64,000 nt of DNA, taken from positions 104,098,001 to 104,162,000 of the forward strand of contig OX597823.1 of the NCBI GenBank assembly GCA_951406725.2, read 5' to 3'. Positions 60,438-61,296 of the stretch are shown one piece after another. Numbering within the stretch: position 1 is the stretch's first letter; each line of letters opens with the position of its first letter. Both the position numbers and the translations under genes were made by a program. The notes below the pieces were generated by a model. That model was not told where the DNA came from and did not search any database. It saw only the letters and a program-made list of their open reading frames with translations. Origin of the DNA: Octopus vulgaris. Its lineage: Eukaryota.

Positions 60438-61296
60438 AGACATTATATTATGTGTATTTATTTATTAAAAAAAAACAATTATAACAATATAACAATATAC
60501 ATACATGTATAACATATTATGCTTTACATATATAATATATAAAAATACTAGTAATTATTAAAATATATAACGTAGAGCATAGAAAGAAGGATAATAATAA
60601 TTAAATTTAAAAATAATTAAAAGTTCATACGGTTGTTATAAATACATACATATATATACACTTTTACATATACATATACATGAATATACGTAAACACATA
60701 TATATTTTTTATACGTGTATGTATATGTAAATGTATATGCATACAAAGGAATCAATTATTATCATTATTATTATTATTATTATTATTATTATTATTATTA
60801 TTATTATTATTATTATTATTATCATCATCATCATCATCATCATCATCATCATTATCATTATTATTATTATTATTATTATTATTATTATTATTATATGTAT
60901 GTATATGTAAAAGTGTGTATATTTTTTTATTTTATCTAGTTTCAGCTCACGAGCTGTGGCCATGCTGGGGCATGTATTATTTATATTTTTAATTTAACCT
61001 TATGAACTTTCTAAACTCTCTGACGAAGCCCAGAGATACACCCAAGTATCTTAATCTTAGCTACCAAATACTTCAGTTCACTAATGGGATGGAAGTAGAG
61101 TGGGGTACTATGGCCTCTTGGCTGAAACAGCTGTAAGATATTATCCTACTTCCTATGCTCTACGTTATATATTTTAATAATTACTGGTATTTTTATATAT
61201 TATATATGTAAAGCATAATATGTTATACTGGTATGTATATTGTTATAATTGTTTTGTTTTTTCTAAATAAATAAATAGACATAGCATAATGTCTAT
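60438..61296. repeat. Fold-back inverted repeat (~155-bp arms) enclosing a hammerhead
   Basis: 60438-60595 (..AACATATTATGCTTTACATATATAATATATAAAAATAC.AGTAATTATTAAAATATATAACGTAGAGCATAG..AGGATAAT) is the reverse complement of 61139-61296. Confidence 0.9.
61017..61138 (+). ncRNA. Canonical-core type I hammerhead with long stem II and palindromic stem III
   Basis: TCT-CTGACGA-AGCC cAGAG...CTCTt GGCT-GAAA-CAGCTG-TA^-AGA. Predicted cleavage is after 61135. Confidence 0.85.

Follow-up and report, generated by a model that had tools for sequence, protein, structure and literature searches.

Hammerhead ribozymes of Penelope-like elements

Repeat-type hammerheads show wide variation in their stems and carry palindromic stem IIIs (PMC3088659). 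For the hammerheads that Penelope-like elements (PLEs) carry, a form with a 3-bp stem I and a palindromic stem III has been described, and ribozymes of this type are held to need a matching partner (PMC4209133; PMC6765202). The published PLE-type hammerheads (PMC8557442) resemble the one analyzed here in their type I topology, their short stem I, their palindromic stem III suited to dimer cleavage and their dispersal in numerous diverged copies; in schistosomes, opposite-strand pairs spaced 100-700 bp apart are described. File S2 of that paper contains stem III strings such as acag-ac-ctgt and acag-tt-ctgt. The core search in the same study allowed 7-17 nt, and eight 'half-core' cases at 35-50 nt were flagged, two of which are cephalopod Naiads. 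The role of hammerheads in endonuclease-bearing PLEs has been called unclear, with the suggestion that they may parasitise the elements (PMC8557442).

The arrangement most often seen in Penelope is that of inverted copies placed head-to-head (PMC3846280), an inverted truncated copy together with a one-sided tail is standard for PLEs (PMC8557442), and AT-rich simple repeats are favored PLE targets (PMC3846280; PMC8557442). The one PLE protein tested in this respect prefers cutting at ATT; in the one PLE tested in vitro, insertion did not require ribozyme cleavage, with uncleaved RNA as its chief substrate, and none of the RNA reads had an end at the cut (PMC11167929). Penelope families have also been reported in an octopus, in an account whose available text does not mention ribozymes (PMC13282606).

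A hammerhead with a 97-nt stem II domain

The window considered here, 64 kb (64,000 nt) of Octopus vulgaris sequence, is AT-rich, microsatellite-dense animal DNA. A type I hammerhead motif with a full core lies on its forward strand at 61017-61138, identified by reading the sequence, by a descriptor scan and by a check of the palindrome and its duplex. Stem I consists of 3 bp (TCT at 61017-61019 with AGA at 61136-61138) and is followed by CUGACGA (61020-61026). The base of stem II, AGCC (61027-61030) paired with GGCT (61120-61123), closes a domain of 97 nt (61027-61123), after which come GAAA (61124-61127) and stem III, ACAGCTGT (61127-61134), a perfect 8-nt palindrome. Cleavage is predicted after A61135, the last letter of a GUA triplet. 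CUGANGA, GAAA and UH are all present, and the three stems follow one another as in type I hammerheads.

The sequence-only reading of this DNA had described the motif as a canonical hammerhead of the dimer-acting PLE type, with a palindromic stem III and an unusually large stem II domain of ~95 nt. Most of this description holds: every element can be read in the sequence and is recovered by the scan, the domain measures 97 nt, stem I has 3 bp, and stem III is weak and palindromic, with a self-duplex of -11.1 kcal/mol. The word canonical applies to the core, which is complete, but not to the pair at 10.1-11.1, which is A-U where G-C is usual. The size of stem II is indeed unusual, since by our own row count the domains in File S2 of PMC8557442 are mostly 12-25 nt and ~50 nt at the longest. 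This motif further differs from published PLE-type hammerheads in having no extra base after A9, and no parent reading frame was recognized at the locus. Among the papers that our literature searches listed, none describes a PLE hammerhead with a stem II near 100 nt, and other work on hammerhead variants of these elements may show long forms.

The descriptor scan, which allowed stem II up to 200 nt on both strands of the 64 kb, returned three intact-core motifs, at 60093 (+), 61020 (+) and 20441 (-), with stem II domains of 46, 97 and 77 nt. In 100 block-wise dinucleotide shuffles of the window, the mean number per window was 0.02 for a stem II of at least 3 bp and 0.01 for at least 4 bp, and a palindromic stem III occurred in none of the 100. 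All three motifs, including the two other long-stem-II ones, escape Rfam, which gave no matches in the window at the gathering score. Up to E 10, there were 13 Rfam matches in 59900-61500, none to a hammerhead family; all are AT-repeat miRNA models far under their cut-offs, and those at 60626-60748 were dismissed as artefacts on the same grounds.

Comparable to the long-stem form in the literature are the 'HHR_half_core' motifs of Naiads, including octopus and bobtail-squid Naiads (PMC8557442), in which the core halves are likewise far apart (35-50 nt), were missed by descriptors of 7-17 nt, and lie in elements with (TA)n targets. Unlike those motifs, the one at 61017-61138 has all three stems and the cut site. 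Inspected by eye in the supplement of PMC8557442, the 3' ends of Naiad_Obim and Naiad_Ovul contain a degenerate core-like stretch, a paired spacer of ~35 nt and then GAAA, and may therefore be relics of long-stem-II hammerheads. By eye, the octopus Naiad 3' ends, like the octopus Hydra hammerhead, differ in sequence from the repeats of the window. Six exact motifs of 12-14 nt from the three hammerhead repeats of the window had no match in the Naiad, Chlamys and Hydra consensus files of PMC8557442, a search by exact strings that misses diverged or line-split matches.

A pattern scan for similar motifs gave none in genome contigs, none in viral contigs and one in metagenome contigs (L001:1454-1578, +). 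The latter has an identical stem III palindrome and a 107-nt spacer, and no sequence kinship with the 61017-61138 repeat beyond the core. Because the spacer holds nested CUGAUGA repeats, this domain is an ambiguous parallel and carries little weight. By eye, a degraded minimal hammerhead is also visible on the other strand of L001 at ~620-675 (-), ~0.8 kb upstream.

Predicted folding of the ribozyme

Folding alone predicts that the stem II domain forms a long interrupted hairpin closed by AGCC/GGCU. The isolated 97-nt domain reaches -26.3 kcal/mol as a hairpin closed by the basal helix, with a z-score of -0.81, i.e., no better than its own shuffles; the stem II domains of the other motifs in the window have z-scores of -4.3 (the neighboring 46-nt domain) and -0.72 (the 77-nt domain). 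Folding of the whole ribozyme gives z-scores of -1.02 and -0.86, which are not significant. For the window copy in its context, the model places the hammerhead fold 9.9 kcal/mol above the minimum and gives the base of stem II a probability of 0.002.

At six positions other copies of the repeat suggest a commoner letter, defined as the form that is commoner in at least two of three DNA runs; these six letters possibly never occur together in one copy. With all six in place, the 97-nt domain reaches -31.3 kcal/mol (29 of 2000 random placements were as good), the predicted fold gap narrows to 6.1 kcal/mol (38 of 300 random controls as good) and the predicted basal helix probability becomes 0.30 (23 of 300). 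Of these letters, one destabilizes the fold and another two leave it as it was. The 61017-61138 copy is thus predicted to misfold, and family-typical letters would restore the fold in part. Among the best 40 of 139 variant rows, the 33 positions of core and stems have none, and the 89 inner positions of stem II have 11 distinct ones (Fisher p 0.035). Taken with their controls, the six commoner letters modestly support the view that the family maintains a structured stem II arm and that the window copy has decayed, as far as such predictions can tell.

A many-copy repeat family

Contigs of four sequencing runs (24 listed) were aligned at 80% likeness to 60897-61480 only, a stretch that leaves the left copy, the neighboring hammerhead and the far ends of the family outside. 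Three DNA runs, with three organism labels, yielded 5135, 6153 and 2946 aligned contigs, many of them less than 95% alike. No run listed is recorded as RNA; the fourth one aligned may be RNA, and its low contig cover carries no information on expression or RNA ends. Summed depth over the ribozyme bins is 12,000-68,000, as against ~18-70 per listed contig, and is not a copy number. The hammerhead at 61017-61138 belongs to a many-copy repeat with diverged copies.

The pieces listed are the 24 longest DNA pieces, with 14,664 further ones, and long pieces favor the crossing of any point. Ten of the 24 cross the cut, 8 cross 61300 with at least 31 nt on each side, and none begins at 61130-61145, contrary to the expectation that arms would start at the cleavage site across copies. 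Because 8 of the 24 cross 61300 and other copies reach the left edge of the aligned stretch, the family must extend at least from 60897 to 61480 and thus past the right arm of the fold-back described below. This one-sided continuation (61301-61480, +) ends beyond the aligned stretch and is therefore at least 180 nt long, compared with the 30-40-nt tail described for PLEs (PMC8557442). Since there are contigs that depart from the reference at 61361 and contigs that join it at 61304 or 61417, subfamily ends or a second repeat may lie within 61301-61480. Two go-back joints figure among those listed, a 33-nt one at 61453 and another at the insert described next.

On the 5' side of the ribozyme, the repeat occupies 60895-61016 (+) and is interrupted at 60923-60977. 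Contigs of each of the three DNA runs connect 60918/60922 with 60978-61000; loose contig ends heap at 60922-60936 and 60972-60973, the edges of the interruption, within which summed depth rises to 0.7-3.4 million (60937-60956). Since other copies skip these letters, 60923-60977 is a later insert, a short fragment from a repeat that is far more abundant and that we take to be SINE-like. It has three partial matches elsewhere in the window.

An inverted copy that lacks the ribozyme

The ribozyme lies within a fold-back. The right arm (61139-61300, +), defined by the arm alignment and by contigs, is the AT-rich repeat sequence 3' of the ribozyme, and the left arm (60433-60596, -) is an inverted copy of it, with 150 of 166 alignment columns identical (E 1e-58; arm divergence 10%). 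The alignment moves the outer limits from the 60438 and 61296 proposed earlier to 60433 and 61300, where no target-site duplication was seen. A 140-nt (ATT)n/(ATC)n microsatellite (60755-60894, 46.7 copies of ATT) separates the two copies, which are directed away from one another, head-to-head; (TA)n tracts lie nearby.

The sequence-only reading had noted that the right arm begins within a few nt of the cleavage site, and it does begin 4 nt past the predicted cut at 61135. From this it had suggested that ribozyme cleavage during retrotransposition set the boundary of the inversion. That suggestion was right in placing a breakpoint at the ribozyme and probably misleading in what it took the breakpoint to be - it is the 3' edge of a block, 61015-61138, that is missing from the left copy, and not the start of the inverted copy. 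In place of this block the left copy has 20 nt of AT-rich filler (60597-60616, -), beyond which it continues (60617-60685, -) as the repeat sequence 5' of the ribozyme, without the presumably SINE-like insert. The continuation consists of two collinear blocks. Block 1 matches left 60644-60617 to right 60984-61014, immediately 5' of the ribozyme, in AT-rich sequence (score reached by 60 of 2000 shuffles); block 2 matches left ~60685-60652 to right 60890-60922 in low-complexity sequence (0 of 2000). The gap between the blocks corresponds to the later insert at 60923-60977, and by eye the letters of other copies at this point resemble the left copy. The filler does not match the ribozyme body significantly, its score being equalled by 1523 of 2000 shuffles. 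Because homology resumes 5' of the ribozyme beyond the filler, the left copy is an inverted family copy minus 61015-61138.

The missing block of 124 nt equals the ribozyme, 61017-61138, plus 2 nt. On the 3' side the break falls exactly where stem I ends, 3 nt beyond the cut; the 5' breakpoint, in AT-rich sequence, is less sharp. In the alignment the left copy lacks AGA (61136-61138), although run-off from a cleaved RNA should keep these three letters; an inverted copy that starts at the cleavage site is not what the alignment shows. A joint of 61014 to 61139 was absent from the best 15 of 46 contig joints, so that among the joints listed the ribozyme-less form has been seen once only, in the window itself.

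The same edge invites an intron reading. PLE terminal repeats often hold introns, and the GTAAGA at 61133-61138, which spans the cut site and precedes the AT-rich arm, is close to the 5' splice donor consensus. A candidate AG lies at 61298-61299, and single contigs in two runs depart from the reference at 61137/61138 and rejoin it at 61264/61265. The acceptor is unconvincing in its context, and most copies lack one candidate AG.

The neighboring hammerhead

A second type I hammerhead, with a 46-nt stem II domain, lies upstream on the same strand (60089-60162, +; identified by scan, folding and duplex energies), with a predicted cut after 60158. It sits in its own inverted repeat (59918-60023 / 60224-60331), whose right arm begins 66 nt past the cut. 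It represents a different family, with no sequence in common with the 61017-61138 family beyond AT-rich noise, and the window holds no second copy of either hammerhead. The two would be separate insertions of different families into one AT-rich tract. A 35-nt AT-rich near-palindrome (60387-60421) lies between the two hammerhead-bearing inverted repeats.

Other features of the window

The third intact-core hammerhead (20441-20346, -), with its 77-nt stem II domain, is arranged back to back with a degraded minimal hammerhead (20537-20564, +) between (TA)n tracts; these sequences are unrelated to the hammerheads at 60-61 kb. A degraded minimal hammerhead-like motif with one core mismatch (30159-30185, +) is weak, because a relaxed scan gives 0.2 such motifs per shuffled window. 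Downstream of the fold-back lies a broken transposase remnant (~61624-62620, +), presumably mariner-type to judge from its motifs, the 3' end of which is cut by a microsatellite. At 62693-63244 there is an exact 276-nt tandem duplication of a SINE-like unit and its microsatellite, 100% identical, which is either very recent or an assembly artefact.

Origin of the head-to-head pair

The locus shares several features with the head-to-head insertions known for PLEs that bear an endonuclease (Arkhipova et al. 2013, PMC3846280; Craig et al. 2021): the inverted, truncated partner lies on the 5' side, the setting is an AT-rich simple repeat, the 3' extension is one-sided, and dead copies have internal deletions. 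It differs from them in that the partner lacks the ribozyme edge to edge, in that the extension is longer than the usual tail, and in having the 140-nt (ATT)n tract rather than a short junction palindrome and no visible target duplication. No RT or GIY-YIG coding sequence was recognized by eye in the 47 frames of at least 120 aa in the window or in the six frames of 60978-61700.

The best explanation, to which we assign a probability of roughly two in three, is that the locus is a decayed head-to-head pair of non-coding pieces of the many-copy repeat, which is likely the hammerhead-bearing pLTR of a PLE; that the inverted copy lost the ribozyme edge to edge, likely through a template jump; and that the neighboring hammerhead is a separate insertion. 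We infer PLE parentage from the layout and from the form of the ribozyme. In tandem transcripts of such an element, two ribozymes would dimerize through the palindrome and cut at GUA; that cleavage takes place in the homodimer is suggested by analogy with published PLE hammerheads. Insertion of the element would yield a head-to-head pair of truncated ends, and the polymerase copying the inverted partner probably jumped the folded ribozyme, leaving the 20-nt filler. Stem I, by holding 61017 beside 61138, would bridge the points of the jump. Later decay and the insert would have disabled the motif that remains, and the folding prediction, the 10% arm divergence and the secondary insert all suggest that the 61017-61138 copy is now inactive.

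The template jump is the weakest step in this scheme. It rests on one event, noticed after the fact, and the odds are about even between a jump on the one hand and an unrelated later deletion or a ribozyme-less subfamily on the other.

Alternative explanations

A modified form of the cleavage model can be constructed in which RT left a cleaved RNA at its 5' end, 61136, and took up synthesis again on the 5' cleavage product, upstream of the ribozyme, so that cleavage set the breakpoint. The position of the breakpoint, 3-4 nt from the predicted cut, and the 20-nt filler, which fits a jump, are as this model would have them. It is nevertheless distinctly unlikely, given the loss of AGA from the left copy, the 66 nt that separate arm and cut at the 60089 neighbor, and the lack of starts at 61130-61145 among the 24 longest listed pieces. 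Summed depth, a poor measure, falls rather than rises directly past the cut in all three DNA runs, and the use of uncleaved RNA as the main substrate in vitro (PMC11167929) also argues against it. Another model starts from the animal non-LTR retrozymes (PMC7229834; 10.64898/2026.07.22.740005), which like this repeat are non-coding, PLE-linked and equipped with a type I hammerhead; the locus would then consist of solo units of a non-autonomous element of this kind (tandem hammerhead repeats, circular RNA) that landed as an inverted pair. A descent of these retrozymes from PLE pLTRs has been proposed, they also exist as monomers, and no coding sequence was recognized here. Nonetheless, the layout is inverted and not tandem, with no head-to-tail hammerhead units at the fold-back, the family exceeds 580 nt while retrozyme monomers are ~300 nt (PMC7229834), and the go-back joints listed include none of unit length. 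We regard this origin as very unlikely and have rejected a non-LTR retrozyme as the identity of the locus.

Long inverted arms around an AT-rich center, with a presumed mariner remnant starting ~320 nt downstream, could also indicate a DNA fold-back or miniature inverted-repeat element that captured a hammerhead in one arm. The family, however, continues past the right arm in 8 of the 24 longest listed pieces, no target duplication was seen at 60433/61300, and the best-supported joints and loose ends listed include no ribozyme-less arm. A terminal-inverted-repeat element was rejected, and the captured-hammerhead version is extremely improbable. Finally, the earlier reading had pointed out that the two hammerheads have the same orientation and lie ~0.98 kb apart, and had proposed that two cuts could excise a defined RNA. 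The geometry is correct: the cut-to-cut distance is 977 nt and both cores are intact, so that cooperating ribozymes in the host might excise or circularize 60159-61135. However, the two families are unrelated, they lie in separate inverted repeats, and their stem IIIs are incompatible; the self-duplexes are -11.1 (61017 motif) and -10.2 kcal/mol (60089 motif) and the cross-duplex only -2.7 kcal/mol, on which basis a heterodimer of the two ribozymes was rejected. The excised piece would comprise arms, microsatellite and insert, and the 61017-61138 copy is predicted to misfold. The different family, the 66-nt distance of the neighbor's arm from its cut and the non-pairing stem IIIs together make a two-cut RNA hardly credible.

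Implications

Apart from the long stem II and the loss of the ribozyme at its edges, the locus is ordinary retroelement debris, a single dead copy without a parent gene. On the preferred reading, this is likely a dead insertion in which a PLE-type hammerhead of long-stem-II form is preserved and the ribozyme has been lost edge to edge once. A much broader claim would be that complete type I hammerheads with structured stem II domains of 46-97 nt, missed by Rfam and by published descriptors (as are all three in the window), form a class carried by the Penelope-type repeats of this animal lineage, and that RT jumps the folded ribozyme when making the inverted partner, which would be the footprint of a folded, perhaps cut, PLE hammerhead on the retrotransposition template in vivo. 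We consider this claim unlikely as it stands.

Complete hammerheads with a very long stem II in animal repeats fall outside the search descriptors used so far. Because such forms escape detection, statements that a given PLE clade lacks a hammerhead may need rechecking. If inverted partners throughout the genome lose the ribozyme at its exact edges, then the ribozyme would be folded on the template during copying, and edge-to-edge loss in the inverted copy would hint that the fold of the motif steers the copying of the element.
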